DNA from: an uncultured delta proteobacterium
GTDB taxonomy: Bacteria; Desulfobacterota; Syntrophobacteria; BM002
Length of the DNA stretch: 64,000 nucleotides
Assembly (NCBI GenBank): GCA_963712115.1
Contig: CAVQGX010000042.1
Span: forward strand, 1-64,000
Reading direction: 5' to 3'
This document shows positions 211-18,377 of the stretch, piece after piece. The notes beneath the pieces were generated by a model. It saw only the letters and a list, made by a program, of their open reading frames with translations, had not been told where the DNA came from and made no database searches. Made by a program: the position numbers and the translations under genes. Position 1 is the stretch's first letter; every line of letters begins with the position of its first letter.

Positions 211-272
211 GGAAACTGGAGATAGCATAATCCACACTTTTGCTATTTAGAACCAGCCACAATATCTGGGGT
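211..272. repeat. Type-A repeated site A1 (core with shortened spacer plus 16-bp box at 257-272)
   Basis: GGAAACTGGAGATAGCATAATCCACACTTTTGC...CCACAATATCTGGGGT. Close match to 10677-10742, with similarity continuing to about 300/10770. Confidence 0.8.
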
Positions 273-730
273 TGTTGAAACTATTCATTTTTCAAAGAAC
301 ACTGCGGAGCTTCAGTTCTGCCTCCACTCTTATAGGATAAATCTAGTGACAAGCCTCAAAGATGAGATAAAGAAAGCATTAGCTGAAACGAGAAAGCGCA
401 TTGCAAAGATTAAGGAGCAGGAAGGGAAATCCCAGGAAGAGCAGCGCAGGGCAGAAGCTTTAATGTTTGAGCCTGAAAAAAAGCGATAGATGCTTTAGCT
501 GGCGAGTTTTCTGATAATCCTACAATACGATTTGAGTTTAACGATTACGTATCAAACTTTTACGAGATAAACATTGAGTCTGAGGACTGGCACTATGAAA
601 TCAGAGTCAGATGTCAAGCTGATTCCTATGATGAAGGTTATAGGTTTCTATACTGGCTTTCCGTAGAAGATGTCTATTATGACCAGGAACTATTAGCTAA
701 AATCTATTACGAGGGCTGACCTGCCCCCAA

Positions 731-1633
731 TTAATGTACCACCTTTAGAGTTAGAGTGTTATCCGTTTTAATCTGCAACCAAGTTGAATCTAGGAGTCGC
801 GGTTTTATTGCTTCAGGTGCCGGTGGTTTGTACTGCAAAGCACTGTGTGGCCTTAAGGTGTTGTATTCTTGCCGCCACTTTTCTATCAGCACCTGGGCTT
901 CTTTTAGGGTGTAGAAGACCTCCCCATTGAGTAACTCATCTCTAAGTTTACCGTTAAAGCTTTCATTATAGCCATTCTCCCACGGACTACCAGGCTCAAT
1001 GAAAAGAGTCTTTACACCTATTCGAGCAAGCCAATCGCGTACCGCTTTGGCCGTGAACTCAGGACCGTTATCTGAGCGTATGTGCTCCGGTACTCCATGC
1101 TCTATAAAAAGATCCGTCAGGCAATGGAGTACATCATCGGCTCTTATGTTTCGGTCAGCCAAAATAGCCAAACACTCACGGCTGAACTCATCGATCACAG
1201 TCAGTATCTTAATGGAGCGCCCATCATGGGTACGATCCATAAGAAAATCATATGACCAGACGTGGTTTCTGTGTGTAGGCCGAAGCCTCATGCAGGACCC
1301 ATCATGAAGCCACAACCTGCCCCGTTTAGGTTGTTTTTGTGGAACCTTAAGCCCCTCCTGCCGCCAGATGCGTTGTACCCGCTTGTGATTGACCCTCCAG
1401 CCCTCCCGTCTCAACAGGGCCGTGATCCGACGATAACCGTAGCGACCATATCGACTGGCCAGCCTGATAATGTCGGCTGTTAGAGCCTCCTCGTCACCTT
1501 TGACAACCGGATTGTGTCTCTGGGTTGACCGCGGCTGCCCGATAACCCGGCATGCTCGCCTTTCCGATATGCCAAGTTTTCCCTGAACATATGCAACGCA
1601 TCGCCGGCGCCGGGCGGGGCTTAGTAGTTTCCC
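731..1633 (-). CDS. IS3 transposase OrfB (rve integrase core), expressed by -1 frameshift
   Basis: WSYDF...DEFSRE...SDNGPEF...[13 protein letters not shown] motifs. Slippery GGGAAAC at 1633-1627 followed by a GC-rich stretch, with an open -1 frame KLLSPARRR. Confidence 0.92.
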
Positions 1634-1899
1634 TCAAGCGCCTCCTTGAGAATCAACTTGTCTAAGGTTAACTCGGCAACAGCTTTCTTCAAACGTGAAT
1701 TTTCTTTCTCAAGTTCCTTAAACCGTTTGACTTGCGATACTTTCAAGCCACCGTATTCTCTGCGCCAGCGATAGTAAGTCTGCTCAGATATCCCAAGACC
1801 TCTGCAGATATCTCTGATCTTCATCCCTTGAGAAAGACCAACCTCAGCCTCTCGCAGCATTCTGATGATCTGCTCAGTTTTAAATCGTTTCCGGCTCAT
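1621..1899 (-). CDS. IS3 transposase OrfA (HTH)
   Basis: [20 protein letters not shown]...[14 protein letters not shown]...[10 protein letters not shown]. Confidence 0.93.
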
Positions 1900-2061
1900 T
1901 CTGACCTCCTTATGCATTTCTCCAGGCTGCACTATGATTCTCTCACAAAACCTGGACCGGTGTAAGGGGGTCAGGTCAGGGCGATGAAGATACCCTTCTA
2001 CAGAAGTTAATGACTATTCTTGCCACATATGAAGCAGATGTGTATCTCACATCAATTCCTT

Positions 2062-2199
2062 ATGACGACTAACGAAATCAAACGAATCAAAGTCCACCCT
2101 GACAAATGCCCCAAGTGCAAGCTCACCGTAATGGTAAAGCCAACTGAGAAAGTTTGCCCTGTCTGTGGGAGTTCGTTGCCAAGACCAGTGAAGCGTTGA
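2062..2199 (+). CDS. 45-aa zinc-ribbon-like microprotein
   Basis: MTTNEIKRIKVHPDKCPKCKLTVMVKPTEKVCPVCGSSLPRPVKR has two CPxC pairs and overlaps the stop of the upstream gene. Below the ORF-track cutoff. Confidence 0.55.
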   Translation: MTTNEIKRIKVHPDKCPKCKLTVMVKPTEKVCPVCGSSLPRPVKR

Positions 2200-2203
2200 A
2201 AGG

Positions 2204-2269
2204 CAACTATATCTTGTGCCAGATTAAATTTTAGCAAAGTGTGAATTAAGGGATGTAATATAAACTTTC
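2204..2269. repeat. Type-B repeated site B1 (box 2204-2219 plus core)
   Basis: CAACTATATCTTGTGC...AGCAAAGTGTGAATTA-AGGGATG-TAATATAAACTTTC. Confidence 0.88.
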
Positions 2270-2328
2270 AGGGTGATATGGGTAGGCGTTTATATAATTC
2301 ATCAAATGTTGAACGAGTATAGTAGCCA

Positions 2329-2562
2329 TCACTGGTCAATAATCTCCAGAACCACATTCTTCCTGAACTTGCCAGAGGCACCGTTCAAGATGGTCCGCAT
2401 GGCCTGGACATTGCGCCCTTTCTTGCCGATTATCTTGCCCATGTCCTCTTTCGCTACTTTCAATTCAATCACTAAAGTGTGTCCTCCAGCGATCTCGGTT
2501 ACTTCCACGTGTTGAGGATTGTCCACCATCGCCTTCGCCATGAATTCAACCAACTCTCTCAT
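2329..2562 (-). CDS. khpA: KH-domain RNA-binding protein (KhpA/UPF0109 family)
   Basis: MRELVEFMAKAMVDNP...DMGKIIGKKGRNVQAMRTIL, with the GxxG KH loop. Confidence 0.88.
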   Translation of the reverse strand: MRELVEFMAKAMVDNPQHVEVTEIAGGHTLVIELKVAKEDMGKIIGKKGRNVQAMRTILNGASGKFRKNVVLEIIDQ

Positions 2563-2622
2563 CGCCGTAACCTCTGTGCTGATCGTGCTTAAACGGAACT
2601 TCAGAGCTAACAAAACTAGTTT

Positions 2623-2808
2623 CTACTTGTACTTGTATACATTCAAGCCCATTTTAATGTGGCTAAATTCCTCGCCAGGCACGTTCACATTGCCAAGGGT
2701 GCTGGCAACTACAATGGTCTTACCTGATTTGCTAGGACCGTGATCTTGTGTTAGGTCCACGGTGATGATGAGGTTGTTGCCCTTGACTTCCATCTGTACG
2801 TTTTTCAT
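2623..2808 (-). CDS. Small conserved hypothetical protein
   Basis: MKNVQMEVKGNNLIITVDL...GPSKSGKTIVVASTLGN, with a strong GAGGGGGGAG RBS. Confidence 0.75.
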   Translation of the reverse strand: MKNVQMEVKGNNLIITVDLTQDHGPSKSGKTIVVASTLGNVNVPGEEFSHIKMGLNVYKYK

Positions 2809-2970
2809 ACTCTAGCTCCCCCCTCTTTGTTCATAGCCGCTCGTCTCAATGGTATTATTGCCAATATTTCATACTACCATAACCTTTTGAGAATCCTTAA
2901 TTCTTAATCAGCAACTTTGGCGATGCTCCCCTCCTTGACCCCTCTTTTCCCATTATGGTAGAAAGCATAA

Positions 2971-3075
2971 TGGGCGAGGTCCTCGATGATACTCTTCATC
3001 TGCCTCGCCCTAGTGCCCCTTTAAGGGTGGCCCCCATTGGCCTTAACTAAACTGGTCAGTGGGGGCTTTTTTTTC
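2971..3075 (+). ncRNA. Putative small RNA (5' hairpin plus family terminator)
   Basis: TTGACC -35-like element upstream. Stem GGGCGAGG/CCTCGCCC, then GCCCCCATTGGCC...GGTCAGTGGGGGC followed by a T-run. No ORF. Confidence 0.45.
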
Positions 3076-3109
3076 CACTCTTCCCCTGCTTCCCAGCACT
3101 GGAGATAAA

Positions 3110-3126
3110 TAGGCACGAACCTTGCT
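3110..3126 (+). promoter_or_regulatory. sigma54 -24/-12 promoter
   Basis: TAGGCACGAACCTTGCT (GG-N10-GC) upstream of the bactofilin gene. Confidence 0.7.
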
Positions 3127-3178
3127 TATCCTGTATGGCTGAAATCCTGAATGCTCCCTAAACAAAAGAGGATTAACC

Positions 3179-3616
3179 ATGTGGAAAAAGAAAAATGAAA
3201 AGCCGGAAGAGCAGGATTATAAACAGAAACTCTTCAGTAATCCAATGAAGCCTGTGGAGACAACTCTCATCTCAGCCAGTGTTAGCCTAGAGGGAAGTAT
3301 TGAAACAGAAGGAACTCTTATTGTGGAGGGGTCTGTGAGGGGTACCATAAAGTGTGGATCCTTGGAGATTCTGGAAAATGGCAGGGTCGAAGCGAACATT
3401 GAAGGTGAAAACGTAACTGTAGCAGGAAATTTTAAAGGCGAAATGATTTGCAGCCGCAAGTTAAGCATCCTCAGAACAGGAAAAGTGCTAGGGGAGATAA
3501 CATATAGTGCGCTTTCCATAGAATCTGGGGGATTATTGGATGGTACTCTTTCAAGAGCCAAAGCAGGAGACACCGCAATACTCCCTTTTTACAAAGAAGA
3601 CGATCAGTTTCTATAG
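3179..3616 (+). CDS. Bactofilin (polymer-forming cytoskeletal protein)
   Basis: TTLISASVSLEGSIETEGTLIVEGSVRGTI...LSIESGGLLDG, beta-helix repeats. Confidence 0.9.
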   Translation: MWKKKNEKPEEQDYKQKLFSNPMKPVETTLISASVSLEGSIETEGTLIVEGSVRGTIKCGSLEILENGRVEANIEGENVTVAGNFKGEMICSRKLSILRTGKVLGEITYSALSIESGGLLDGTLSRAKAGDTAILPFYKEDDQFL

Positions 3617-3639
3617 TATTCATACCGCTTTCATAGGTT

Positions 3640-3679
3640 GCCCCCATAAGCCATCACTGGTCAGTGGGGGCTTTTTTTT
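3640..3679 (+). terminator. Intrinsic terminator of the repeated family
   Basis: GCCCCCATAAGCC-ATCACT-GGTCAGTGGGGGC-TTTTTTTT. Confidence 0.7.
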
Positions 3680-3784
3680 GTTGTCACTTCGGCCCCCATT
3701 CCTGTAACTTGCCTGTTTGGAGGCCCTACCCCACCGATTGGAAGACAGTAAACTCTAGCTAGAGAAAATAGACAACGTAAATGC

Positions 3785-4510
3785 ATGCAGAAGCTATCGC
3801 ATCTAATCAATGGTGCTGTGCGCTGGTTGCGTACCATATCATTGCCAAAATCTCTGAATTTGCCAGTGGATGAAATCGCCAAGATACTTTGCTACGGAAA
3901 TTCAAACACCTGGGGATATGTTCCAGGGACTGGAAAACGATACTCTTTTGGCTCTCGCTGGCCTGGAATTTTACAAAATAGACTAGGAAAAAATGTGCGT
4001 GTGATTGAAGAAGGATTGAACGGAAGAACCACTGCTTGGGATGACCCGCTAGCAGAGGGTAGAGATGGAAAGAAAAGTCTCAAAGTCATTTTGGAGTCTC
4101 ACTCACCCATTGACTTACTTGTCATCATGCTTGGTACTAACGACCTGAAACACCGCTTTGGATTATTAGCTTCCGATATTGCACAAGGGGTAGGCGAACT
4201 CGTTCAAATGGCAAAAGAGAGCGATGCTGGACCTAATGGAGCCAACCCGCAGGTACTTTTGGTTGTACCACCTCGGATTCTTTTCTTGCCTGGTCAGACT
4301 GCGTTGGATTTTGAAGGTGCGCTCGAGAAATCAGGAAAGCTATCAGCTTACTATAAATCAGTAGCGAAGCATTTAAGTTGTGCATGTTTTGATGCGTCAG
4401 GGCTCGTAGCTGGCAGCTCGATTGATGGAGTACATTTGGACAAGAAGGCGCATCGAAAGTTGAGCAAAGCACTTACAGAGGTCATTGAAAACCTCATCTC
4501 TACACCTTAA
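3785..4510 (+). CDS. SGNH/GDSL hydrolase (arylesterase-like); true start probably near 3866
   Basis: ILCYGNSNTWGY, EEGLNGRTT, IMLGTNDLK and DGVHLD blocks. Confidence 0.88.
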   Translation: MQKLSHLINGAVRWLRTISLPKSLNLPVDEIAKILCYGNSNTWGYVPGTGKRYSFGSRWPGILQNRLGKNVRVIEEGLNGRTTAWDDPLAEGRDGKKSLKVILESHSPIDLLVIMLGTNDLKHRFGLLASDIAQGVGELVQMAKESDAGPNGANPQVLLVVPPRILFLPGQTALDFEGALEKSGKLSAYYKSVAKHLSCACFDASGLVAGSSIDGVHLDKKAHRKLSKALTEVIENLISTP

Positions 4511-4514
4511 AGGA

Positions 4515-4582
4515 AAACCATATTTAGTGTTAGATTGAAACCCAGGTGAGTGTGAATTAAGGGATGTAATCTAAAATTTCGC
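4515..4582. repeat. Type-B repeated site B2
   Basis: AAACCATATTTAGTGT...GAGTGTGAATTA-AGGGATG-TAATCTAAAATTTCGC, starting 4 bp after the SGNH stop. Confidence 0.88.
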
Positions 4583-4885
4583 AGTGGGCGAATTGAGGTT
4601 ACACCTTTCTAAATGCTTTAAAAGTACATGAATCATACACTCAAGTTATTTCACATCCCCCAAGACCCACCAGAGATCAAACTCAATTCTCACCCGTAAG
4701 GCTATCTCTCTTCTTCTTTCATTCTTCCATCTTTTACAGAATCGAGACATCAGTCAAAAATTGATCATTTGGCCAAATAGAACTTGGCCTTTTGGCAAAA
4801 TTTGGTGATTTACCAAGTTAGTCCTGCTTCCCTCCGGCAGTCATAAGTATTTGTTTTCAAATGAATTTACGGTTTACATGCTGCT

Positions 4886-4902
4886 TTGGCACTATCCCTG
4901 CC
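4886..4902 (+). promoter_or_regulatory. sigma54 promoter
   Basis: TTGGCACTATCCCTGCC. Confidence 0.6.
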
Positions 4903-4974
4903 TATAAAAGGCACCGCAAGAAGGTACACCAAAATTTCTTAGCTTAAAGAGAAATGGTCAAGGGGGAGATGAAT

Positions 4975-5136
4975 ATGAAAGCAATGCTACAGCACTTTTT
5001 GCACCCCTTGAATCTATGGTGTCGAGTAGGTGGAAATGGCAGGTGGTGCTTCAAATTATACGAAAAGTGGCTGTGGCAACCCTTATTGAGAGAATTGCTT
5101 TCTGATGGCCCAATCCAAAAGGAAGAGGGAGTGTAA
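4975..5136 (+). CDS. Small hypothetical protein
   Basis: GGGGAG RBS; MKAMLQHFLHPLNLWCRV...; first gene of an apparent operon. Confidence 0.6.
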   Translation: MKAMLQHFLHPLNLWCRVGGNGRWCFKLYEKWLWQPLLRELLSDGPIQKEEGV

Positions 5137-5141
5137 GCAAT

Positions 5142-5537
5142 ATGAATATTTCCTGCGCATACTGCAATAAACCTCTCACTCAAGGTCGGGAAGTTGTAAC
5201 AGTCTGTAGCGGTGGACGGTTGTATTTGTTCTGCACCATTGGGTGCAGAGACCTTTATGGATTCAGGAAACTCACCAATCGTATTTGCGCCAGGGAAGGC
5301 TGCAACAACAGGGTGCCAGAGGGAAACAGAATGCTATGTTCTAGTTGCCATCAGAGAGGAAACCACTTAGCGGAGTCTGAACTCTCCTTTGGTGAGGCAG
5401 AGAGAGCACACTGGGAAAGAATGGAGCGGGAACTTCATGGGCGAATTGAGGAGAGGATTAGAATCTATAGTTCCCAAGATATGTCCCAGGAAGAACTACG
5501 CTCTTTAGTGCCAAGTCTGCAAGAGGAAGCGGCATAG
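5142..5537 (+). CDS. Cys-rich putative metal-binding protein (TRASH/zinc-finger-like)
   Basis: CAYC...FCTIGC...CAREGC...CSSC, with a GGGAG RBS. Confidence 0.65.
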   Translation: MNISCAYCNKPLTQGREVVTVCSGGRLYLFCTIGCRDLYGFRKLTNRICAREGCNNRVPEGNRMLCSSCHQRGNHLAESELSFGEAERAHWERMERELHGRIEERIRIYSSQDMSQEELRSLVPSLQEEAA

Positions 5538-5553
5538 GTTTTGGGGAGGCAGT

Positions 5554-5709
5554 ATGGGTTTGATGTCCTATTTCTTTCTTTCATTTGTTCTCATCTTTTT
5601 CTTGTTGCTTGTCACAGTGTTTATACGTCTACTTTTGACGGATAACGAAGCGGTGGAAATAGATTTGCTAGAAGTTGAGGCAGAGTCAGACGAGACAGCA
5701 ACTCCTTAG
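5554..5709 (+). CDS. 51-aa single-TM protein
   Basis: GGGGAGG RBS; MGLMSYFFLSFVLIFFLLLVTVFIRLLL followed by an acidic tail. Below the ORF-track cutoff. Confidence 0.55.
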   Translation: MGLMSYFFLSFVLIFFLLLVTVFIRLLLTDNEAVEIDLLEVEAESDETATP

Positions 5710-5737
5710 TCGTGGATGAAATCCTTTCGAGGTCTCA

Positions 5738-6169
5738 ATGTTTCCGGAGTTATACTTGTCCGTTGGGTATATTTTTCTGGTAAGTCTGCTTCTACTAAGG
5801 GATGAATATCTAACCTGGAAGATTAACAAGAAGCGCCTTGACGTCCGAGCCAAACTCTCTTGGCCAGTCACGGTCGAAACTATCGCAGGACCCATTTACG
5901 GTCACACAGAAAACATTAGCGCCACTGGTGCGTTATTGGTCTGCCTACAGCCATTATGCAAGGGTGAAATAGTAAAAGTAGTCTTAAATGCTCCCAGTCG
6001 GCCCTTGGAGGTAGATGCTGAGGTGATTTGGATCGGCAGGTATCTGCCCCCTGAAAAGTACTATCCTCACAATGCAATAGGTGTCCAGTTCAAAAGAATT
6101 TCGGATGAGTCCAGAAGTTTTCTGGCTCTAATAGTGCATAATTGCTTGAACGCTGATAAGCGTTCGTAG
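5738..6169 (+). CDS. PilZ-domain protein with N-terminal TM segment
   Basis: KRLDVRAKLSWP (RxxxR) and TENISATGA (N/DxSxxG). Confidence 0.85.
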   Translation: MFPELYLSVGYIFLVSLLLLRDEYLTWKINKKRLDVRAKLSWPVTVETIAGPIYGHTENISATGALLVCLQPLCKGEIVKVVLNAPSRPLEVDAEVIWIGRYLPPEKYYPHNAIGVQFKRISDESRSFLALIVHNCLNADKRS

Positions 6170-6214
6170 GCTTATATACTGGAGAGATAGCGGCGCTTTG
6201 GTTCTGTTTTTCTG

Positions 6215-6231
6215 TTGGCATCGGGTTTGCA
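6215..6231 (+). promoter_or_regulatory. sigma54 promoter
   Basis: TTGGCATCGGGTTTGCA. Confidence 0.7.
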
Positions 6232-6317
6232 TTCAAAAACAGTGAGATGAGCGTGAGGCTCAAGTGGTTTTTTTGTCTCCTAGATCGCTATCTGTGTATC
6301 AGGGGTAAAGGTCCAAT

Positions 6318-7100
6318 ATGGCTGTTTATAAAGAAAAACGCCAATTCGCAAGGGTAGAGGTGAAATGGGCTGCCACCATTATTACCTCTAACGGTCAGCT
6401 TGTTGGTGAGACTATAGATATAAGTCAGGTTGGTTTGTCTATTTACTGCAAAGAACCACTACCTATAGGGCAGGAGTTTCGCTTGGAAATCCAGCCGCCT
6501 AACTTCCAGCCAATCACTGCTACTGCAATAGCAATCTGGTCAATGGATACAACCTTTTTGGAGGGTTTTCGAGGTTTTGTGACAGGTGCTGAATTTGAAT
6601 ACATCACTGAAGATGATATTAGGCTTCTTGGGGAGGCAATCAGAAACCAGCCAGAGGAGAAAGACTATCAGCAGAACTTAGAAGGTCGCAAGAGCCTTGA
6701 AAAAGATAGAATGGATAAACAGTCAAAGATTGCAGCTAAGAAAAAGCAAGTAAGTGGTCGGATATATCCGAGATTCAAAGTGATCAACTGGCCTACTATA
6801 ATTCTAACCAAAGATAAGATGATAGATGGAATAGCAAGAAATCTCAGTGCCAGCGGAGCATACATTTATTACGAAATGCCACAGAACAAAGCCGCACCTC
6901 TTCCTTTGAATGCACAAGTATCCCTTGTCATTAAAGTGCCCGACCGCTTTCCCCTCTTAGTTCGCTCTGAGGTTGTATGGTCCAGAATCATCAAGACTAA
7001 TGACGGCATTACATTGCTCGGAGCGGGTTTTAGCTTCACAGATATCTTTTTTAGTGATCGCCAATTTCTCCGTGAGATGGTCGCAAAGTATGCCTGGTAA
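6318..7100 (+). CDS. Tandem PilZ-domain protein
   Basis: KRQFAR...DISQVG and GRIYPR...NLSASG. Confidence 0.85.
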   Translation: MAVYKEKRQFARVEVKWAATIITSNGQLVGETIDISQVGLSIYCKEPLPIGQEFRLEIQPPNFQPITATAIAIWSMDTTFLEGFRGFVTGAEFEYITEDDIRLLGEAIRNQPEEKDYQQNLEGRKSLEKDRMDKQSKIAAKKKQVSGRIYPRFKVINWPTIILTKDKMIDGIARNLSASGAYIYYEMPQNKAAPLPLNAQVSLVIKVPDRFPLLVRSEVVWSRIIKTNDGITLLGAGFSFTDIFFSDRQFLREMVAKYAW

Positions 7101-7194
7101 GAGGTTCAATCGCATGGAAGAGAGTTAAAAATCATACCTGCATAATCCCAGAGCTTAGTGTAAGCGTGATCATCGGAAGTCCAGATCGCCACAC

Positions 7195-7310
7195 CCAGAA
7201 TGTGAATTACATACTCCCCACTTTTGCCCCTTCTGATCCGCCCCCACTTGTAGTAGTATCCTTCCAGAAGCTAAAAGTGTGAATTAAGGGATGTAATCTC
7301 AAGTCCGCTC
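7195..7310. repeat. Empty A3-box-B3 unit
   Basis: AATGTGAATTA-CATACT-CCCCACTTTTGC (A, with TTAAT deleted), box CCCCCACTTGTAGTAG at 7241-7256, then GCTAAAAGTGTGAATTA-AGGGATG-TAATCTCAAGTCCGC (B). Confidence 0.8.
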
Positions 7311-7346
7311 TCCTTCCATCTATGCTGTCCACCTACATATTTTATA

Positions 7347-7363
7347 GGGGCACAATCATTGCA
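7347..7363 (+). promoter_or_regulatory. sigma54 promoter
   Basis: GGGGCACAATCATTGCA. Confidence 0.55.
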
Positions 7364-7406
7364 TTCATCTGATAGTTTATTTGCACAAACTAAGCGATAG
7401 CCTATT

Positions 7407-7775
7407 ATGTTTAAGTTAGAACTGACGCTGCAAAACCTTGTGCTAAAAGAATACGCTCTCTCTGATGGGGCCAAACTGAGCATTGGCCGCCATTCTGAAA
7501 ACGACATTGTGCTCAAAGATATGAGTGTATCCCGCCATCATGCCACCGTTGAAGTAAGGGGACAGCAGTTGCTTGTCTTCGACGCAGGGAGCAAGAACGG
7601 GATAGCTGTGAACGGCACAAAAGTAAAATCTGCCGAACTGTACCATGGTGATGTTGTCAAGATTGGCAAGAATTGCAGCATCAAAGTGTCGGTCCCTCCT
7701 TCTAAGAAAAAGGAAGCAACCATAACCGGAGAACATGACCAAGAGAGTGGTACGTTGAAGGCATCTGACCCTTAA
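7407..7775 (+). CDS. FHA-domain protein
   Basis: IGRHSENDIVL...VSRHHA...DAGSKNGIAVNG...LYHGDVVKIG. Confidence 0.92.
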   Translation: MFKLELTLQNLVLKEYALSDGAKLSIGRHSENDIVLKDMSVSRHHATVEVRGQQLLVFDAGSKNGIAVNGTKVKSAELYHGDVVKIGKNCSIKVSVPPSKKKEATITGEHDQESGTLKASDP

Positions 7776-7940
7776 CCTACTGAATCACGTGGCCTGTAAC
7801 AGGCATAGAATCACCTGACCTTTTAACCAACTGAACTTTGGTTTCTTAGCCAAATTTGGCGATTTAATAACATTCCTCTATAGCAGTTCAACGAAGTTAA
7901 GTACCTATATTTAATATATTTATCTGCCTTTCTTCTTCAT

Positions 7941-10676: not shown

Positions 10677-10742
10677 GAAACTGGAGATGACATACTTTAA
10701 TCCCCACTTTTGCATTTTAGGGACAGACACAACATCTGGGGT
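10677..10742. repeat. Type-A repeated site A4
   Basis: GAAACTGGAGATGA-CATACTT-TAATCCCCACTTTTGC...ACACAACATCTGGGGT. Confidence 0.88.
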
Positions 10743-10786
10743 TATGGCGATATTCATTTTTCAAAAAGTCCCAAGATTCCTTAATC

Positions 10787-12192
10787 TGTTATTGACAAGT
10801 GATTTGTCCGGTTCATTTTGACAAATGAAATGTCCGCTCCATAGTTTTCAGTCCTCCCCCTGTTACCATGACGAGGCTTTAGCAACGGGGATACGGTTGG
10901 ATGCCTGGAGTTCAGTGCTGTGAGTTACTTGTTTTGGTACCGGCTTTCCTTTGGCATTGTAGCGACCCAGCAATCTAGTACCCCACCAGACAGTGTGTGT
11001 ATTATCGAGGTGTTTTCGCACAATAACACGTAAGCCTGCACAGGAGGCTCTTCCTGGCTGTTTGTCTATTTGGAGTCGCACCTTGTTCATGACCACAGTA
11101 TTGTCTTTAGCGACAGTGCGACCTTCTTCGAGACAGAGAATTTGGTTGAGGTTAGCGTTGCCAGCAGTGACAAAAGCACTTTGTGGGAGAGCTGGCTCTC
11201 TTTTGAATTCTTGATTGTACTGAGGCAAAAAGCGCTGACGCAGATACCGATTTGCCCCTTTGATGGTGGAGATTCTAGCGATTCGCAACTCATTAACCAA
11301 CCGATCCTGTAGGGTGCGATTGATGCGCTCACTTCGTCCTCGTGCTTGCGGCGAGTAGGAGGGAATATGCTCTACGCCGAGACGAGCCAAACAGCGTCCA
11401 ACTTGGGTGAGGTTTTCCTTGTCCACCCGACCTCCTGCCTTGGGAGTATGGAAGGCCCAGCTGGCCCGATCGGTATACAGTGCCATGGGGATCCCGTAGG
11501 TTTCTGTGACCTCGCCCAGGGCTGTCATCACCGCCCAGGTGGACTCTTTTTTCCACAGCTGGGCATACAGAAGACCGTTGGTGGCGTCATCGACTACGGT
11601 AATCATCGTTTGGTATTGCTCTGCGTTTCGGGCCAACCACCTATGACGGCTGCCATCCAGATGGAGCATTTCTCCAAACAGGGCCCGGCGCTCTCGTCTT
11701 TTGCGGTGTCTGCCGCGTTTACGTCTTTTTTTGACTAGGCCTGCTTCCTGGAGTGCTTTTTTGACAAAGCTGTATGAAAGGCTTACTTCATGTTCTCTGC
11801 GTGCAATCCCATGGAAATGGCGGACATTAAAGCCCTGATATCGCTCGCGGTAGAGGCGAAGTACCTTCTCAACCTCCGCCACCGGTGCCCGACGGGGCGA
11901 GGGTTTTCCTGTACGACGGTCCAAAAGACCGTCATAGCCATAGAGCTCGTAGCGCCCTCTCCAACGCCTCAAACTACGTGGGCTTATCGCCAAAATGTCA
12001 GCTGCTTGTGTCCACTTCAACTGTCCGCTCATCGCTCTAAGGATCACTTCTTGAATCTTCATTGCCCGCTCCAGCGCGGATGGCCCGTACAGTTTCATAG
12101 GCAACCCTCCTCGGTTACCTTTGTACAGCCTTCCGCCGAAAAGCGGACATTTCATTTGTTAAAATATGCGGTCACATTATGTACCAACTACA
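10787..12192 (-). mobile_element. IS1202-family (ISNCY) insertion sequence with 16-bp target duplication
   Basis: TGT...ACA ends; inverted internal ACAAATGAAATGTCCGC at both ends; direct repeat CCAAGATTCCTTAATC at 10771-10786 and 12193-12208. Confidence 0.9.
10863..12098 (-). CDS. DDE transposase (ISNCY/IS1202 family)
   Basis: N-terminal HTH; GEMLHLDGSRHRW...VDDAT...YTDR...SPQARGRSER..TLQDRL. Confidence 0.9.
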   Translation of the reverse strand: MKLYGPSALERAMKIQEVILRAMSGQLKWTQAADILAISPRSLRRWRGRYELYGYDGLLDRRTGKPSPRRAPVAEVEKVLRLYRERYQGFNVRHFHGIARREHEVSLSYSFVKKALQEAGLVKKRRKRGRHRKRRERRALFGEMLHLDGSRHRWLARNAEQYQTMITVVDDATNGLLYAQLWKKESTWAVMTALGEVTETYGIPMALYTDRASWAFHTPKAGGRVDKENLTQVGRCLARLGVEHIPSYSPQARGRSERINRTLQDRLVNELRIARISTIKGANRYLRQRFLPQYNQEFKREPALPQSAFVTAGNANLNQILCLEEGRTVAKDNTVVMNKVRLQIDKQPGRASCAGLRVIVRKHLDNTHTVWWGTRLLGRYNAKGKPVPKQVTHSTELQASNRIPVAKASSW

Positions 12193-12263
12193 CCAAGATT
12201 CCTTAATCTTGACTACCTACACTGCTTTGTGCCAATATGTCGACTCTGACCAAAGGAGGAAAC

Positions 12264-12701
12264 ATGAGCCGAGTTATAATCCTTGTCGCGATAACATTTG
12301 CACTTGTTACCTCGTTTGCCTTTGCAGACGAACAATACCGATGTACGGCCGACAGTGCCTCTGGTTTTTATTTCAACAGAGCAGCAGAGAGTTGGCAGCG
12401 CACAAAAATTAAGGCAGACTCTAAGTACACAATATCGAAGCCCGAGGGCAGTAAGTGGGCATTCGAGGTTCGCGAGATGGGAAACTTCTCTCCAATCGCT
12501 ACATGCCAGGATGGGTTCGATGAGGCGGGGTTTCTCTTTTGCAAGGCAACGGGTTACGATTTTAGATTCAACCGGAAGAACGGCCGTTATCTTGCCGCCT
12601 ATCTCCTCGGCTACTATAATGTCCTCCCAGGGGACAAGGAGATAACCGATGCAAAAAGTGCTAGGCCATATATAGAAATTGGCACGTGCTCCCCAATTTG
12701 A
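12264..12701 (+). CDS. Secreted hypothetical protein (cargo between A4 and B4)
   Basis: AGGAGG RBS, signal peptide MSRVIILVAITFALVTSFAFA, four Cys. Confidence 0.75.
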   Translation: MSRVIILVAITFALVTSFAFADEQYRCTADSASGFYFNRAAESWQRTKIKADSKYTISKPEGSKWAFEVREMGNFSPIATCQDGFDEAGFLFCKATGYDFRFNRKNGRYLAAYLLGYYNVLPGDKEITDAKSARPYIEIGTCSPI

Positions 12702-12791
12702 ACACCAGCCAAAGGCCTCTCCAGCCGCGCACCACAAACAACGTCCCTGGCCACAATACACTCACTTTCTCGGTGACTGTCAGTTGAAAGT

Positions 12792-12859
12792 AGACAAGAT
12801 CTTGTGCCAGATTCAAATCCAGCAAAATGTGAATTAAGGGATGTAATCCACAGTTTGCT
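12792..12859. repeat. Type-B repeated site B4 (most symmetric core)
   Basis: AGCAAAATGTGAATTA-AGGGATG-TAATCCACAGTTTGCT, arms 14/16 inverted-identical; box AGACAAGATCTTGTGC at 12792-12807. Confidence 0.9.
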
Positions 12860-13069
12860 CCCCCCATTTTTGCCACCCGCCCAAACTGCCAAAGATTGTG
12901 CTTTCTCTTGACAGCAAACGCCCCAGTAGCCTAATCTGAAACAAGTTCAATCTTCTCGTTCCAGCTCATTCTCGAGCGATCATATTTCTGAATCTGACCT
13001 GCCCTTGCCCTGTTCAAGTTCACTGCTTTTATCAGCTTGTCCTCTCCAACGCTTACAAGAGATATTGGC

Positions 13070-16000
13070 ATGGCAACAGAAGACTTCAAGCGTAAGCTCA
13101 CCGCAATCCTCAGTGCCGATGTCAAAGGTTACAGCCGCCTCATGGGCGAAGATGACCAGGCCACCGTCCGCACCATTACAGCTTACCGGGAGGTTATTAC
13201 TGGGGTTGTACAGAAACACAGAGGCCGGGTTGTGGACTCTCCAGGCGACAACATACTGGCAGAATTTGCCAGTGTGATAGACGCAGTTGGCAGTGCGGTG
13301 GAGATCCAAGAGGAACTCAGGGCAAAAAACGCTGAACTGCCTGAAGATCGCAGGATGGAATTCCGCATTGGAGTCAACCTTGGTGATGTGATCCATGAAG
13401 AAGAGCGGATATATGGCGATGGAGTCAACGTCGCTGCCAGAGTAGAGAGCCTAGCTGAGGCTGGAGGTATATGTGTCTCTGGTACCGTATTTGACCAGAT
13501 CGAAAGCAAGCTTCCCTTGGGGTACGAGTACCTCGGGGAGCAGAGTGTAAAGAATATCTCTAAGCCGGTGCGGATCTATAAAGCTCTTATGGATCCCGAG
13601 GCAGTGGGAAAAGTTATTGGGGAGCAAAAGGCTGAGCCAAGGCGAGGGCAAAGAATAGCTCTTGTGGTGGTGACCGCACTCCTTCTGATAGTAGGCGGTC
13701 TGCTGATTTGGCGTACTGCCTTCCCACCAGTGCAAGTCGCCTCTGTGGACAAGATGGCCTTTCCTTTGCCTGACAGACCTTCCATCGCAGTCTTGCCGTT
13801 TGACAACCTGAGCAAAGACCCAGAGCAGGAATATTTCAGCGATGGGCTCACTGAGGAGATCATCTCTGCACTTAGCAGCGTTCCAAAACTCTTTGTAATT
13901 GCTCGAAACTCCACATTCACCTACAAAGGCAAACCCGTAAAGGTACAACAGGTTAGTGAGGAATTGGGGGTTCGGTATGTTTTAGAAGGGAGCGTTAGAA
14001 AGAGTGGAGACAAGATAAGAATAACAGCTCAGTTGGTCGACGCAATTAATGGGCATCATTTATGGGCGGAAAAGTATGATCGAAACATAGATGACATATT
14101 TGCCGTTCAAGACGAGATCACCAAAAGAATCATCACGGCCATGCAGGTAAAACTGACGGTGGGCGAGCAAGTCCGAACTGCTGCCAGAGGCACAAATAAC
14201 CTTGAGGCCTATCTGAAGTGCTTGCAGGCGAATGAGTATATGCACCAGATTAATCCAGAGAGTAATGCTTTAGGAAAGCGATTGGCAGAGGAAGCCATTG
14301 CTTTAGACCCAGAGTATGCTTGGGCATACTATGTTCTAGGTAGAGGCCACATGCTTGACGTGTGGGTTAAAGCCAGTAAATCACCAAAGGAGTCCATAGG
14401 GAAGGCCATAGGATTAGTGCAAAAGGCTATTGCCTTAGATGACACAAATGTTGATGCTCAAGGCCTTTTGGCATTCCTATATTCAATGACAAGACAGTAT
14501 GACAAGTCCATTGTTCAAGCGGAGAAGGCCTTGGCCCTTAATCCCAATTCAGCTTGGGCCCATTTCGCTGTGGGTAAGACACTTAGTTTTGCCGGCAGGT
14601 GGGGGGAATCCATTCCGGAATATAAGAAAGCGATACGTGTTAATCCTATCCCGCCGGGCAATCAACTCTGGAGTTTAGGATTGTCCTATGCCTATACGGG
14701 GCAATACGACGAGGCAATACAATGGTGTGAAAAAGCAGTCCGTCAAGAGCCTAATGATCTATTAGCCCGCATGATGATGACTGTGGTTTATAGCTTGTCA
14801 GGAAGAGATGAGCAAGCTCGAGTTCAAGCCGCTGAAGTACTAAGGATACAACCCAAGCTTTCTATTAAGAAATTTGAAAAGAAGCTCACATACAAAAGGA
14901 AAGAGGACAGAGAGAAGTTTCTCGGCGCCTTGCGCAAGGCAGGGCTACCCGATGAGCCACCACTACCGCTACCGGACAAACCTTCTATTGCGGTGCTTGC
15001 CTTCGATAATATGAGTGCTGATCCTAAGCAGGAATATCTCGCTGACGGCATCACCGAACATATCATTTTCGCCCTTTCCAAGCTCTCGAAACTATTTGTC
15101 ATTGCCCGGCATTCGTCATTCGCTTACAAGGGCAAGCCCGTGAAGGTTCAGCAGGTGGGCAGGGAATTGGGTGTTCGGTATGTTATGGAAGGTAGCGTCC
15201 AAAGAGCAGGCGACCGCCTGCGGATAACGGCACAGCTTATTGATGCGACAACAGGGAATCACCTGTGGTCCAACAGCTATATTCGAGAGTTGAAAGACCT
15301 GTTTGCCATACAAGATGACATTACAAAGAATATCATCACGGCCATTCAAGTGAAACTGACAGAAGGGGAGCAAGCCCGAGCTGCTGCAAAGGGCACAGAT
15401 AACCTCGAGGCTTACCTCAAGTACTTACAAGCCAATGAGTTGATTCACCAGATTAATATAGAGAGTAATGCTTTGGCAAAGAAATTGGCAGAAGAAGCCG
15501 TTGCCTTAGACCCAGAGTATGCTATGGCTTACAAGGTTCTAGGGCAATCTCACATGTTGGATATATGGCTCAGAACCAGCAAATCCCGCAAAGCTTCTAT
15601 GGCGAAGGCCATGGAGTTAGTGCATAAGGCTATTGTCTTGGATGACTCCTATGCTGAAGCCCACGCCCTTTTGGGCTATCTATATACAATGACAAAGCAG
15701 TATGAAAAGGGCATTGCCCAAGCGGAGAAGGCCTTGGCCCTTAATCCCAATTCAGCTGAATCACATATGAGATTGGGTAAGACACTTAGTTTTGCCGGCA
15801 GGTGGGGGGAATCCATTCCAGTATATAAAAAAGCGATACGCCTTAATCCTATCCCGCAGAATATCTACTTCTATAGTTTGGGGATCTCCTACTTTTATAC
15901 GGGGCAATACGATGAGGCAATTGAATGGTGTGAAAAAGCAGTCCGTCAAGAGCCCGATTCTCTATACGCCCGAATAATGATGACTTTGGTTTATAGTGAT

Positions 16001-16144
16001 TCAGGAAGGCTAGAGGAAGCACGGGCTCAAGCCGCAGAAGTGCTCAGGATACAACCCAAGTACACTGTCAAAAGAGGCGCATACAAGAGGAAAGAGGATA
16101 CAGACCGGATGGTTAGTGCGCTACACAGGGCGGGTCTGAAATAA
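13070..16144 (+). CDS. Class III adenylate/guanylate cyclase-domain protein with TM and duplicated TolB-like/TPR modules
   Basis: RKLTAILSADVKGYSRLM...GDNILAEF...FRIGVNLGDV...GDGVNVAAR; PSIAVL(P/A)FDN(L/M)S occurs twice; TPR repeats. Confidence 0.92.
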   Translation: MATEDFKRKLTAILSADVKGYSRLMGEDDQATVRTITAYREVITGVVQKHRGRVVDSPGDNILAEFASVIDAVGSAVEIQEELRAKNAELPEDRRMEFRIGVNLGDVIHEEERIYGDGVNVAARVESLAEAGGICVSGTVFDQIESKLPLGYEYLGEQSVKNISKPVRIYKALMDPEAVGKVIGEQKAEPRRGQRIALVVVTALLLIVGGLLIWRTAFPPVQVASVDKMAFPLPDRPSIAVLPFDNLSKDPEQEYFSDGLTEEIISALSSVPKLFVIARNSTFTYKGKPVKVQQVSEELGVRYVLEGSVRKSGDKIRITAQLVDAINGHHLWAEKYDRNIDDIFAVQDEITKRIITAMQVKLTVGEQVRTAARGTNNLEAYLKCLQANEYMHQINPESNALGKRLAEEAIALDPEYAWAYYVLGRGHMLDVWVKASKSPKESIGKAIGLVQKAIALDDTNVDAQGLLAFLYSMTRQYDKSIVQAEKALALNPNSAWAHFAVGKTLSFAGRWGESIPEYKKAIRVNPIPPGNQLWSLGLSYAYTGQYDEAIQWCEKAVRQEPNDLLARMMMTVVYSLSGRDEQARVQAAEVLRIQPKLSIKKFEKKLTYKRKEDREKFLGALRKAGLPDEPPLPLPDKPSIAVLAFDNMSADPKQEYLADGITEHIIFALSKLSKLFVIARHSSFAYKGKPVKVQQVGRELGVRYVMEGSVQRAGDRLRITAQLIDATTGNHLWSNSYIRELKDLFAIQDDITKNIITAIQVKLTEGEQARAAAKGTDNLEAYLKYLQANELIHQINIESNALAKKLAEEAVALDPEYAMAYKVLGQSHMLDIWLRTSKSRKASMAKAMELVHKAIVLDDSYAEAHALLGYLYTMTKQYEKGIAQAEKALALNPNSAESHMRLGKTLSFAGRWGESIPVYKKAIRLNPIPQNIYFYSLGISYFYTGQYDEAIEWCEKAVRQEPDSLYARIMMTLVYSDSGRLEEARAQAAEVLRIQPKYTVKRGAYKRKEDTDRMVSALHRAGLK

Positions 16145-16157
16145 GGGGAGGTAAACA

Positions 16158-16961
16158 ATGAGCTTCGTCAAATCTATGCAATGGGTCAGTGAGAATCTTA
16201 CCAAGACAGTCGAGTTCTATGATGCAGAAATACTCATGGTCTATTTTGAAACGACCACATCTGCCGTGGAGAAGCTGCTTCCACCGCCGCTTGAGCCTGC
16301 ATCAGCGCCTCTCGGTATTGTCTTCGTCGCCAACTATCCCAGCACCAGTTTTCGTGTGAAGTATCTGGAAAGTGGCCTGTTCTTGCGTGCGGCTTTCCAG
16401 GGAGATGAAGGAAACTATTGCCTTTCGATGCCTGTTACGGACCACATGGCCATGATCCTTGGTCGCGAGATCTTCGGGTATCCCAAGAAAATCGGCCATA
16501 TCCACCTACAACGTAACGGGGAAAACGTTGAGGGCTGGACCGAGCGTCACGGAGTGCGTTTTCTGGATATCAAGGCAAGACTCACCGGCAGATTCAAGGA
16601 TGAGTACACGCAGAAAGTGATGGCTAAGGTCTTGCAGCCTCCCATGGATCCAATAATATACAACTTCAAGTACTTTCCTGCGCCGGAAAGGGTTGGCTTC
16701 GACTACAATCCACGCCTGGTAAGAGAAGTAGTGAATATACGCCCAAAGCAAGTGGAGATCGGCGAGGCTGAAATCACGCTCAGGTCCTCGGACCATGATC
16801 CGTGGGGCGACGTAGATGTTGTCCGTGTGCTGGGTGCGGTATATACCATAGGCGATAACACAATGCAGCCAGGCAGTGTCGTAGCTGAAGTGGATCAGAC
16901 GGAATTCGCACCGTACGCCTTCATGAAGCTAGATGTTTTCCATTCCACTGAGGATCAATAA
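16158..16961 (+). CDS. Acetoacetate decarboxylase family protein
   Basis: LLPPPLEP...YLESGL...GREIFGYPKKIG (Schiff-base Lys motif). Confidence 0.88.
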   Translation: MSFVKSMQWVSENLTKTVEFYDAEILMVYFETTTSAVEKLLPPPLEPASAPLGIVFVANYPSTSFRVKYLESGLFLRAAFQGDEGNYCLSMPVTDHMAMILGREIFGYPKKIGHIHLQRNGENVEGWTERHGVRFLDIKARLTGRFKDEYTQKVMAKVLQPPMDPIIYNFKYFPAPERVGFDYNPRLVREVVNIRPKQVEIGEAEITLRSSDHDPWGDVDVVRVLGAVYTIGDNTMQPGSVVAEVDQTEFAPYAFMKLDVFHSTEDQ

Positions 16962-16968
16962 GCTAGAT

Positions 16969-17036
16969 AGTAAACTTCATATTACATACTTTAATCCACA
17001 CTTCTGCTATTTTGATATATCCACCACATTTTGTGC
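16969..17036. repeat. Type-A repeated site A5
   Basis: AGTAAACTTCATATTA-CATACTT-TAATCCACACTTCTGC...CCACCACATTTTGTGC. Confidence 0.88.
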
Positions 17037-17142
17037 TGCGGCTTCTAGTGGGAAAAGTGATCATATGAAAAAGCTACCTCCTTCGAGGCCCTAGGTGTTA
17101 AATGGGCCTTGGGGATAACCAAAACAAAAGGAGGTAGCCACC

Positions 17143-18160
17143 ATGTATTATACCGGGATTGATTTACACAAGAAAACATCTTTTATTACTACAATCGATG
17201 CACGTGGAAAGATCGTCACCAGAGCCAACCTGCAGAATGTGGAAGAGAACATTTTGGCTTACTTTGCACAATCTAGGAGACGAGACTAAGATCGTCATTG
17301 AATCTATGGCATCGTGGTACTGGCTTTACGATCTTCTCACTGGAGAGGGTTTTGAGGTTGTGATCTCCAATCCAGTGAAGACCAAGGCCATTGCTTCGGC
17401 CAAGATCAAAAACGACAAGGTGGACTCTCATATGCTGGCTCAGCTTCTCAGGGCTGATTTGATCTCTACGGTTCATGTCAGCAGCCTTGAGACCCGTAAA
17501 CTCAAGGAACTTCTGCGTCATAGAAACAAATTGGTTCGAGATGCCACCCGCATGAAGAACCGTATCCATATGCTGCTGATGAAGAACAATTTTAGAAGTC
17601 CTTTTAGCGATCTTTTTGGTGTTCAGGGCCTGAGGTATCTGGAAGAGATTGACTTGCCAGATTACCATCGCCAACACGTTGAGACCTATCTTTTGCTCTA
17701 TGAAAGGCTCCAAGAGCAGATCGAGCCTTTAACCAAGAGAGTGCGTGCCCTGGCAAAGGAAAATCACACAGCCCAACTTCTTATGACTATCCCTGGCATT
17801 GGACCTATCACAGCCATGTTTATTGTAGCGGAGGTAGATGATATCTCCCGGTTTCGCTCATATCGGAACCTGGCTTCTTACGCCGGCCTGGTGCCTTCGT
17901 TAGATGCCAGTGCTGGCAAAGAGAAAAGGGGTAGGATCACCAAACAGGGATCCCGCTACCTGAGAACCGCTCTGGTCGAGGCTGCCCAGGCTGCAGCCAG
18001 AATGCAAAACTGCAGGTTGCGTGTTTTCTTCCGCAGAAGAATCGTCAAGGCGGGCTATCAAAAGGCCATTGTGGCCACAGCCCATAAGATCTTGCAGTAC
18101 GCTTTCTACGTTTGGAAAAACCAAACACCTTACAAGGAGACCTATCCTGTTTGCGCGTAA
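17143..18160 (+). pseudogene. IS110 transposase with one frameshift near 17263
   Basis: ATG at 17143 after AAGGAGG gives MYYTGIDLHK... The frame changes to ...IVIES...KNDKVDS...TIPGIG...YAGLVPS..SAG...GRITKQG. Confidence 0.85.
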
Positions 18161-18331
18161 CCCGTTAATTCACATGGCCCACAAAGGTGAGGCCGAGAAA
18201 GTGATTGGGACGCCGTTTATCAGATGCATGATAGTGTGACACCTTTGGGTGAACACGGATAGGTGTTTGGCGATGAGCCCAATATAGTGGGTCCAGGCGG
18301 ACAGTTAACAGAGCTTTTTTACTTGACAACC
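18161..18331 (+). ncRNA. Putative IS110 bridge/seek RNA region
   Basis: 3' non-coding end containing TTAATTCACA and GAAAGTG (match the target site) and ATAGGTG (matches the donor end). Confidence 0.6.
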
Positions 18332-18344
18332 AGCTTTTTCATAG

Positions 18345-18377
18345 GTGTGAATTAAGGGATGTCATCTAAACTTTGCT
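18345..18377. repeat. Type-B repeated site B5 (right part)
   Basis: GTGTGAATTA-AGGGATG-TCATCTAAACTTTGCT. Confidence 0.85.

Follow-up and report, generated by a model that had tools for sequence, protein, structure and literature searches.

Short inverted sites of two spacer classes bound mosaic accessory-gene modules in chromosomes of uncultured Desulfobacterota

The window analyzed here is a stretch of 64,000 nucleotides (nt) at the start of contig C42 (CAVQGX010000042.1), in the 4.9-Mb, 70-contig assembly of an uncultured delta proteobacterium (GCA_963712115.1; source genome G000). Its first 18.4 kb carried an array of short sites of arm-spacer-arm build belonging to two classes, A and B, which were strictly inverted with respect to each other, gave the arrays one polarity, were conserved throughout the genus and bounded modules similar to those of other species in mosaic arrangement, with junctions at the site core. 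Tentatively, and with slightly less than even confidence, we read A and B as sites of a tyrosine recombinase acting in trans, closest in logic to the pdif/xrs modules of Acinetobacter. The anatomy of the sites, the two spacer classes, their strict inversion, the polarity of the arrays, the conserved spacer and the position of the junctions fit such an enzyme. Other genomes are labelled G002, G005, G007, G008, G011, G013, G015, G017 and G018, of which G002 and G013 are closed.

Anatomy of the site and copies in the window

The site consisted of a core of 13-7-13 arm-spacer-arm build and a conserved flank of about 45 nt. In an alignment of the nine window copies the conserved unit measured about 62-75 nt, as opposed to the 40 nt or so given in a first-pass annotation of the stretch. 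The left arm, AAAGTGTGRATTA, was well conserved and was followed by a 7-nt spacer and by a weaker, inverted right arm (TAATnnAnAGTYY). The inverted left arm was present after the spacer in many copies, the two arms agreeing at up to 12 of 13 positions (mode, 7), and information content peaked at ATTAA plus the spacer, the right arm being less informative. The annotation had recognized the architecture of a tyrosine-recombinase core, with two arms around a spacer, and this was borne out, as was the symmetry of 14 in 16 arm positions that it had noted at the B copy placed at 12821.

Copies fell into two sharp classes, B (GTGTGAATTA-AGGGATG-TAAT) and A (GTGTGGATTA-AAGTATG-TAAT), and the alignment showed A to be the reverse complement of B with consistent differences, so that the two inverted classes of the annotation were upheld. 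The same was true of both spacers: AGGGATG occurred in all five B copies, and the A spacer read CATACTT on the plus strand at 10687 and 16981. Plus-strand B cores were located at 2239, 4550, 7277, 12827 and 18345 with 0-1 mismatch to GTGTGAATTAAGGGATGTAAT, whose number of matches expected by chance was 0 (100 shuffles); a diverged inverted copy of the same sequence was found at 16981. An nhmmer profile built from the nine copies returned exactly nine matches in the window, all of them before 18.4 kb and none between 18.4 and 64 kb, which agreed with the annotation both in the reality of the site family and in where it ends. The units were as follows.

213 to 276, minus strand: A-type unit, core with a 5-nt deletion (nhmmer E = 2e-11, and alignment)
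2197 to 2268, plus strand: B-type unit, core 2239-2259; unit edges at 2209 and 2270 from the loose ends of many metagenome contigs
4511 to 4579, plus strand: B-type unit, core 4550-4570 (nhmmer)
7197 to 7306: empty A-B pair, A at 7197-7259 (minus strand, 5-nt deletion) and B unit at 7235-7306 (plus strand, core 7277-7297)
10678 to 10748, minus strand: A-type unit, core 10687-10707 (nhmmer E = 1.6e-15)
12785 to 12858, plus strand: B-type unit, core 12827-12847, arms symmetric at 14 of 16 positions
16971 to 17042, minus strand: A-type unit, core 16981-17001; this left half of an A-B pair is separated from the right by an IS110-family insertion sequence (IS)
18308 to 18376, plus strand: B-type unit, core 18345-18365, last site of the array

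Two further details of the annotation had to be corrected. Deletions of 5 nt were carried by the A copies at 211, as annotated, and at 7195, and the third A copy, which had also been described as deleted, carried none. Position 17051, listed as a further site, was the start of the IS110-family element, which lies inside an A-B pair whose B core is the one at 18345.

No Rfam family matched at the sites in a scan of 1-20 kb with E values up to 1, the only results being a tRNA, a c-di-GMP-I riboswitch and a sub-threshold small RNA match. Full-text searches with 15-nt pieces of the core found the sequence in no paper, and a literature search on cassette or repeat systems in Desulfobacterota gave nothing relevant.

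A motif of about 40 nt, GCTCCCACCCCTCCATGCTG..CACCTCACTTTCTCC, recurred to the right of many B sites (e.g. 18366-18420 and 7298-7340); in G011 it stood after a terminator without a B site. Elsewhere in the source genome a hybrid spacer, AAGGATG, was present at C54:2961 and C13:15503, being A-type at spacer position 2 and B-type at position 4. Such spacers may have arisen where A and B recombined within the spacer.

Abundance, polarity and array structure

When sites were counted as 21-mers within 4 mismatches of either core, the source genome contained 93 B and 53 A sites (146 in total) vs. a single one in the reversed genome. The nhmmer profile gave 210 matches at E up to 10 across the whole genome, 152 of them at E below 0.001. 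Sites were gathered into arrays, which occurred on some twelve contigs and often lay at their ends. A and B lay on opposite strands: counting A as an inverted B, 107 of 109 neighboring pairs (at most 10 kb apart) had one polarity, as compared with 50 pairs on the same strand and 59 on opposite strands when the site type was ignored. Genes followed this polarity, with a co-oriented open reading frame (ORF) upstream of 72 of 92 B and 45 of 53 A sites, and about four in five neighboring ORFs matching the array. Many B units stood directly behind a rho-independent terminator or a stop codon.

Array cargo identified by Pfam comprised PilZ (four), response regulators, FHA, OmpA, GNAT, SMR and NlpC/P60 proteins, a caspase-like peptidase, a FabH-like enzyme, GATase and a LuxR-type regulator, and included no recombinase. 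The largest cluster of proteins near sites in G000 and its relatives held 65 ORFs, the longest member of which looked PilZ-like by eye, and PilZ recurred in the arrays scanned with Pfam; this suggests a large expansion of PilZ paralogues tied to the arrays.

Close A-B pairs numbered 19, with spacings of 75-76 nt (12 pairs), 130-133 nt (6) and 215 nt (1), and the pairs of 130-133 nt carried a central terminator hairpin. Intervals from A to B that enclosed genes or IS were also seen genome-wide. The A...B bracket was nevertheless not the unit of the system, as the annotation had taken it to be: 75 of the 93 B sites had no A partner within 260 nt, though a few of these showed a degenerate A with a 5-nt deletion, and runs of 4-6 B sites in series occurred.

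These arrangements bear on a reading in which a non-autonomous transposon or miniature inverted-repeat transposable element, about 110 or 170 nt long and in some cases enclosing captured genes, has A and B as its two ends, its transposase being encoded elsewhere and lone ends arising by decay or one-ended events. Such an element would explain the conserved lengths of the 19 close pairs and the A...B intervals enclosing genes or IS, and the insertion of A units into attC sites and the hundreds of different flanks around the B unit, both described below, would also suit it. All 19 pairs, however, were without a direct repeat at their edges, and their outer flanks were inverted copies of each other; the symmetry therefore runs past the exchange point, as is typical of recombination sites and not of transposon tips. 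The unpaired B sites and the B series likewise run counter to it, and no transposase recurred near sites except that of IS110, which interrupts them. Y1 elements have hairpins of their own, and no Y2 (IS91-type) transposase was found, a weak point given that the same search was also empty in all 14 control genomes. We consider this reading unlikely. An origin in RAYT (REP-associated tyrosine transposase) and repetitive extragenic palindromic (REP) elements or in IS200 was ruled out, the RAYT repeats being unrelated and the IS200 copies having their own hairpins. The RAYT-like Y1 transposase gene, at C20:238180-238446, is accompanied by GC-rich REP hairpins (C20:238068-238640) that form a separate repeat family.

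Conservation across genomes

The family first annotated in the window extended genome-wide and genus-wide. With at most 2 mismatches, 16 of the 17 other genus members examined contained the B core, as did the single genome representing a second genus. A further 22 genomes, 3 belonging to other genera of the family and 19 to other families of the class, gave no match within this limit. A scan of species representatives gave at least 100 loci, nearly all in metagenome-assembled genomes (MAGs) labelled Desulfobacterota, Syntrophobacterales, Desulfobacteraceae or Deltaproteobacteria. Exact core matches were also obtained on short contigs of MAGs labelled otherwise (Haliea, Thermoplasmata, Flavobacteriales, Dehalococcoidales, Dadabacteria and 'uncultured archaeon'; loci L047, L054, L066, L078, L083, L086 and L098), which are probably binning errors. 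Sites near mid-chromosome in G002 and G013 were not syntenic.

The outer six bases of the left arm drifted between species, GTTTAG being dominant in G013 and G008 and GTGTGC in G018. A and B of a given genome shared the same outer-arm variant, and ATTAA and the two spacers were unchanged; in G013 only 1 of 42 mismatches, over 23 sites, fell in nt 7-17. If sites have to be mutually compatible for strand exchange, a spacer that exists in two classes and is better conserved than the arms would be required; a simple protein-binding palindrome or a patch of homology would not show this.

For this reason among others we regard it as very improbable that a dimeric DNA-binding protein uses the sites as operators or for a structural purpose and that they play no part in recombination. 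Palindromic arms and an intergenic position are what such sites would show, but the approximately 150 copies lie mostly behind genes and terminators, the spacer is their best conserved part, the two spacer classes are strictly inverted, and module boundaries and duplications start at the core, as detailed in the following section.

Junctions at the core and mosaic modules

Among 10,440 pairs of sites in the source genome, 7 shared only the far-left flank and 11 only the far-right flank, and in 14 of these 18 one-flank pairs the switch fell in, or within 9 nt of, the invariant core. Two A/B pairs had the right arm and a further 120 nt in common at 96-100% identity and differed in left arm and spacer. 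These hybrid pairs bracket the exchange between core nt 14 and 18, that is, at the edge of spacer and right arm.

Comparison with other species showed the first 18.4 kb of the window to be a between-species mosaic, its modules matching other species at 84-96% identity (84-92% in G005, G011 and G017), elsewhere and in other contexts, vs. 69-82% for neighboring core genes. Three modules were delimited as follows.

2260 to 2942, plus strand: module after B2239, with a KH-domain gene at 2329-2613 on the minus strand
3657 to 4570, plus strand: SGNH module, the SGNH hydrolase gene (3785-4510) plus its own B unit
12193 to 12773, plus strand: secreted-protein module, with the gene for a 154-amino-acid (aa) protein (orf154) at 12237-12701

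The block after B2239 was 86-89% identical in G011, G005 and G015, where it stood behind different variants of the B unit and homology began 2-3 nt before the core; the module was also present on C53 of the source genome. The SGNH block with its B unit was 91% identical in G005, diverging seven bases past the core, and the block after B4550 was 89% identical in G017 from core nt 19. A second PilZ block was 90% identical in G011, ending just before the right arm of A7197, and the orf154 block was 96% identical in G002, with an A unit directly upstream there. In the array of C36 one block started exactly at the first spacer base of an A site. Between species, then, homology started at core nt 1 or 19 or ended just after the core, and module boundaries behaved likewise when the G002 array was used as query.

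Core DNA at 20-40 kb of the window gave long syntenic matches of 69-80% to G005, G011 and G017 and of 79-90% to G002. Modules were 10-20 points more alike than the genomes carrying them, an excess that points to their having passed between species recently. The location of the array was conserved: the array of G002 lay beside the same core block (L009 789-7232 matches C42:20860-27804), its genes differed from those of the window, and they matched scattered arrays of G000. In line with the first-pass annotation, sites therefore bound modules that differ between relatives, and module homology stops at them. The same annotation had allowed that the sites might prove single and scattered, the modules invariant among relatives or the sites the ends of a catalogued transposon; sites were neither single nor scattered, modules were polymorphic and no target duplication was present.

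Public data comprised 24 runs in the form of assembled contigs, each run containing at most 0.38 of the sampled words, and 4 of them were compared with the window. The 62-nt B unit (2209-2270) had many different neighbors, with hundreds of different flanks in sediment metagenome contigs. The comparison gave one solid joint, that of the IS-free allele described below; apparent site-to-site joints in these contigs had sides of 20-29 letters, were unreliable and were not counted.

Relation to the integron of the same genome

A genuine integron occupied C27:1-3303 of the source genome, with an integrase gene, IntI (317 aa; C27:2350-3303, TIGR02249, 487 bits vs. a cut-off of 265), at least three canonical attC sites, each about 115 nt long, and, upstream, small cassettes on the reverse strand; the start of the contig falls within the array. 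That A and B are unusual attC sites used by this integrase would account for cassette-like arrays in which small co-oriented genes are each followed by a site, and A sites do abut attC halves. We give this reading hardly any credence, less than any other considered here. An attC site is an imperfect palindrome that folds single-stranded and has terminal boxes of the type ...AAC / GTT.... The true attC of the genome end in TAAC...GTTA, vs. AAACT/AGTYY for A and B, and are quite different in sequence, so that A and B are not attC sites of that integron. Lone B units (-60 to +12) folded no better than shuffles (mean z -0.2, n = 60; control 0.04), no A or B site was found within 115 kb of IntI on C27, and IntI scored above the cut-off in only 4 of 18 genomes of the genus, being missing from the closed, site-bearing G002 and G013.

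At four loci (C42:183889, C27:118257, C31:156392 and C13:18486) an A site was joined into the middle of a canonical attC, in the same arrangement each time, the attC 3' half following the right arm of A at a distance of about 35 nt; no matching 5' half was seen near these loci. This indicated that A/B elements invade integron cassettes rather than being them.

Search for the recombinase

As annotated, no recombinase gene was encoded within the window. The XerD-like and XerC-like proteins, present in every genome checked, were the only tyrosine recombinases common to all, and the two closed, site-bearing genomes G002 and G013 encoded exactly these two; Xer is thus the default candidate. A 278-aa XerA-like recombinase lay 25-470 nt from a site at three of four loci examined (twice in G005 and once in G011), stood 2.7 kb from the nearest site in G000 and was absent from G002 and G013, which makes it a weak candidate. 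Integrases on C39 and C11 adjoined two arrays of the source genome. No serine recombinase was found in G000.

Weighing the recombinase reading

Several findings weigh against a dedicated recombinase. Beginning with the enzyme, whose gene the annotation had suggested looking for beside copies of the site, no recombinase gene consistently adjoined them, and blastp of 1979 ORFs (at least 80 aa, from site loci of relatives and arrays of G000) yielded only the C39 and C11 genes. That type of integrase was rejected as the enzyme of the system, the C39 type occurring, like IntI, in 4 of 18 genus genomes. As for Xer, A and B have a 7-nt rather than a 6-nt spacer and are unlike the ATAA-central region-TTAT motif given in PMC11705084; matches to a generic dif pattern were no commoner than those to a backwards control, and the dif of this lineage was not identified. 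With respect to junctions, 4 of the 18 switch points lay 15-46 nt left of the core, as homologous recombination would also give, and the core being invariant, most switch points are placed no finer than within it. The orf154 module occurred in G002 without any B unit, and homology in one duplicated module ended before the next B unit. Finally, no excision circle, deletion or inversion junction was seen in the public runs, whose short assembled contigs cannot show excision or inversion.

The lack of a linked enzyme and the four off-core switch points keep alive the main rival explanation, possible though in our view doubtful: that the units are passive intergenic repeats that spread in the genus, similar to REP elements and bacterial interspersed mosaic elements (BIME) or to the dRS3 repeats and intergenic mosaic elements (NIME) of Neisseria, and that RecA-dependent or microhomology recombination, for example after DNA uptake, shuffles modules with no dedicated recombinase. 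In REP, BIME and REPIN families two repeat types are always mutually inverted, stand at fixed spacings behind genes and are targets of IS, and insertion of IS in or beside REP-type repeats is known. A and B are similarly inverted, are paired at two fixed spacings (75-76 and 130-133 nt, the longer with a terminator hairpin), occupy intergenic DNA behind terminators and have IS of three families in or beside the units. They differ from REP and REPIN in being clustered in arrays and in bounding mobile modules, and the only RAYT-like gene of the genome is flanked by other, GC-rich repeats. Neither does passivity explain why, between species, the outer arms vary more than the inner arm and the spacer do, why the two spacer classes keep strict inversion over whole arrays or why A/B hybrid junctions lie at the spacer edge, and an identity of 21 nt is short for RecA.

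For NIME arrays, PMC1797815 weighs both homologous recombination and a specific recombinase, proposes dRS3, of 6-8-6 build, as a recombinase binding site targeted by an IS110-like phage recombinase, and states that such arrays were not observed outside Neisseria. As far as they are described there, NIME resemble the present arrays in having short inverted-repeat sites in syntenic intergenic arrays tied to exchange of neighboring genes; they differ in the sequence of dRS3, in its 6-8-6 build as against 13-7-13 with two spacer classes, and in being tandem non-coding repeats beside genes, in contrast with one A or B site per gene block.

The recombinase reading finds its closest parallel in the xrs/pdif sites of Acinetobacter. 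According to PMC11705084, Xer sites consist of a XerC arm, a 6-bp central region and a XerD arm, with ATAA/TTAT beside the central region; flanking xrs/pdif sites are mostly inverted, with divergent central regions and one arm far from the consensus, and gene exchange is proposed to proceed by cointegration between compatible sites on different molecules, not by excision. IS that target pdif sites are known in Acinetobacter (PMC10132070). On these descriptions, both systems have modules bounded by many short inverted arm-central-arm sites with divergent centers, one weak arm and no recombinase in cis. A and B differ in being chromosomal, at about 150 per genome and in polar arrays of an uncultured Desulfobacterota; in their 7-nt spacer and inner motif (ATTA/TAAT, not ATAA/TTAT); and in having only two spacer classes, both conserved across genera, and a conserved flank of about 45 nt.

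Compared with integrons, A/B arrays are alike in their polarity, in their small, mostly co-oriented accessory genes with one site behind each, in a fixed chromosomal place whose content differs in relatives, in a sharp junction at one site edge and in being targets of IS110-family elements; they are unlike in that A and B do not act as hairpins of folded single-stranded DNA, lack both an attI and an integrase linked to them and differ in sequence from the local attC. The R64-type shufflon, as described in PMC11852207, uses Rci with inverted 12-7-12 sfx sites, in which one arm varies and the 7-bp core and the remaining arm are conserved. It thus shares with A and B, to the extent of that description, an asymmetric arm-7-nt core-arm site with one conserved arm and inverted use. 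Shufflons, however, comprise a few segments inside one pilus gene, serving as its alternative 3' ends, lie beside rci and only invert, whereas no rci-like gene adjoined A and B in the window or at the loci of relatives, and their arrays are tens of kb of independent genes that move between genomes.

Proposed mechanism

On the recombinase reading, A and B would be double-stranded core-type recombination sites, and a recombinase supplied in trans, most likely of the tyrosine type, would exchange strands at the edge of spacer and right arm. Agency of a recombinase, its identity and an exchange of only one strand pair are what we infer. If exchange needs matching spacers, the classes AGGGATG (B) and AAGTATG (A) would not be expected to cross-recombine. 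DNA to the right of the exchange point would travel as one block and DNA to the left as another, and repeated exchange with chromosomes or imported DNA bearing compatible sites would give rise to polar arrays in which accessory genes are co-oriented and would carry modules from one species of the genus to another.

Genes and insertion sequences of the window array

Accessory genes between the window sites encoded a KH-domain protein, a bactofilin, an SGNH hydrolase, two PilZ proteins, an FHA protein, a sulfatase fragment, a TPR-adenylate cyclase and an acetoacetate decarboxylase, and three IS were inserted among them. Further features were as follows.

717 to 1979, minus strand: IS3-family element with orfA (1621-1932) and orfB (731-1414), Pfam HTH_Tnp_1 and rve
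2062 to 2199, plus strand: zinc-ribbon ORF of 45 aa, ending at the B unit
10771 to 12192, minus strand: IS of 1422 bp, transposase at 10863-12155, 24-nt inverted repeats
17052 to 18344, plus strand: IS110-family element, transposase at 17159-18160, inserted at the outer edge of a B left arm
18595 to 18670, plus strand: tRNA-Cys, 230 nt past the last site, the array boundary

These contents did not support the annotation of A...B intervals as holding dedicated cargo: three of the four mainly held IS (IS3, the 1422-bp IS and IS110), and the pair A7197/B7277 was empty. The interval 346-2199, described as cargo genes, consisted of the IS3 element, which has a 100% copy on C14 and a 94% copy in G007, plus the zinc-ribbon ORF. 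The latter, which also preceded B sites at other loci (shared upstream sequence, translations), was ruled out as TnpB-like, being only about 45 aa long. The interval from A10687 to B12827 did contain the small secreted-protein gene assigned to it; it also contained the 1422-bp IS, which is absent from this place in other populations. Seven 100% copies of this IS were present in the genome, and contigs of three public runs joined 10770 to 12193 (shorter side 81 letters), which represents the IS-free allele. The orf154 product was ruled out as a hidden transposase; it has a signal peptide and no Pfam match.

Three B sites carried the IS110 lineage at the outer left-arm edge, and a fourth carried it in inverted orientation at the corresponding edge of the right arm. 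This showed independently that the two arms are equivalent sequences; IS110-family elements take the site as their target, not as their own ends.

The array lies on the 5' side of the tRNA-Cys, not the usual side for integrase-borne islands. Beyond it, a c-di-GMP-I riboswitch at 19147-19237 (76.9 bits, against a gathering score of 35) immediately preceded a gene with an fn3 domain (19218-19739), next to arrays in which genes for PilZ c-di-GMP receptors are frequent. The TPR-adenylate cyclase gene, encoding 1035 aa, contained an internal duplication (13769-14320 / 14972-15523; period 1203 nt, 70-75% identity), and paralogues of it recurred in other arrays. An identical terminator-like repeat of 24 nt, ACTGGTCAGTGGGGGCTTTTTTTT, was present at 3051-3074 and 3656-3679. 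Modules of G005 and G011 ended in it too, and it may mark module boundaries of a second type.

Implications

Were the repeats passive, arrays of intergenic repeats that direct recombination to accessory genes would be known from a second group besides Neisseria. On the recombinase reading, the two spacer classes and the species-specific arms make up a concrete substrate set for finding the enzyme, and a 13-7-13 site with two spacer classes could interest tool builders. It is possible, and we advance it with considerable reserve, that the arrays represent a previously undescribed chromosomal gene-cassette system of uncultured Desulfobacterota, in which a host recombinase, possibly Xer, imports, stacks and exchanges modules between species through two opposed spacer classes and which invades attC. 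With integrons and the pdif modules of plasmids, it would make three ways in which cassette arrays arise. Should these sites indeed be substrates of a recombinase, shuffling of genes as cassettes would not be confined to integrons or to Acinetobacter plasmids and would extend to the chromosomes of abundant sediment bacteria, where signalling and envelope genes (PilZ, FHA, response regulators, OmpA and hydrolases) would be moved between species.

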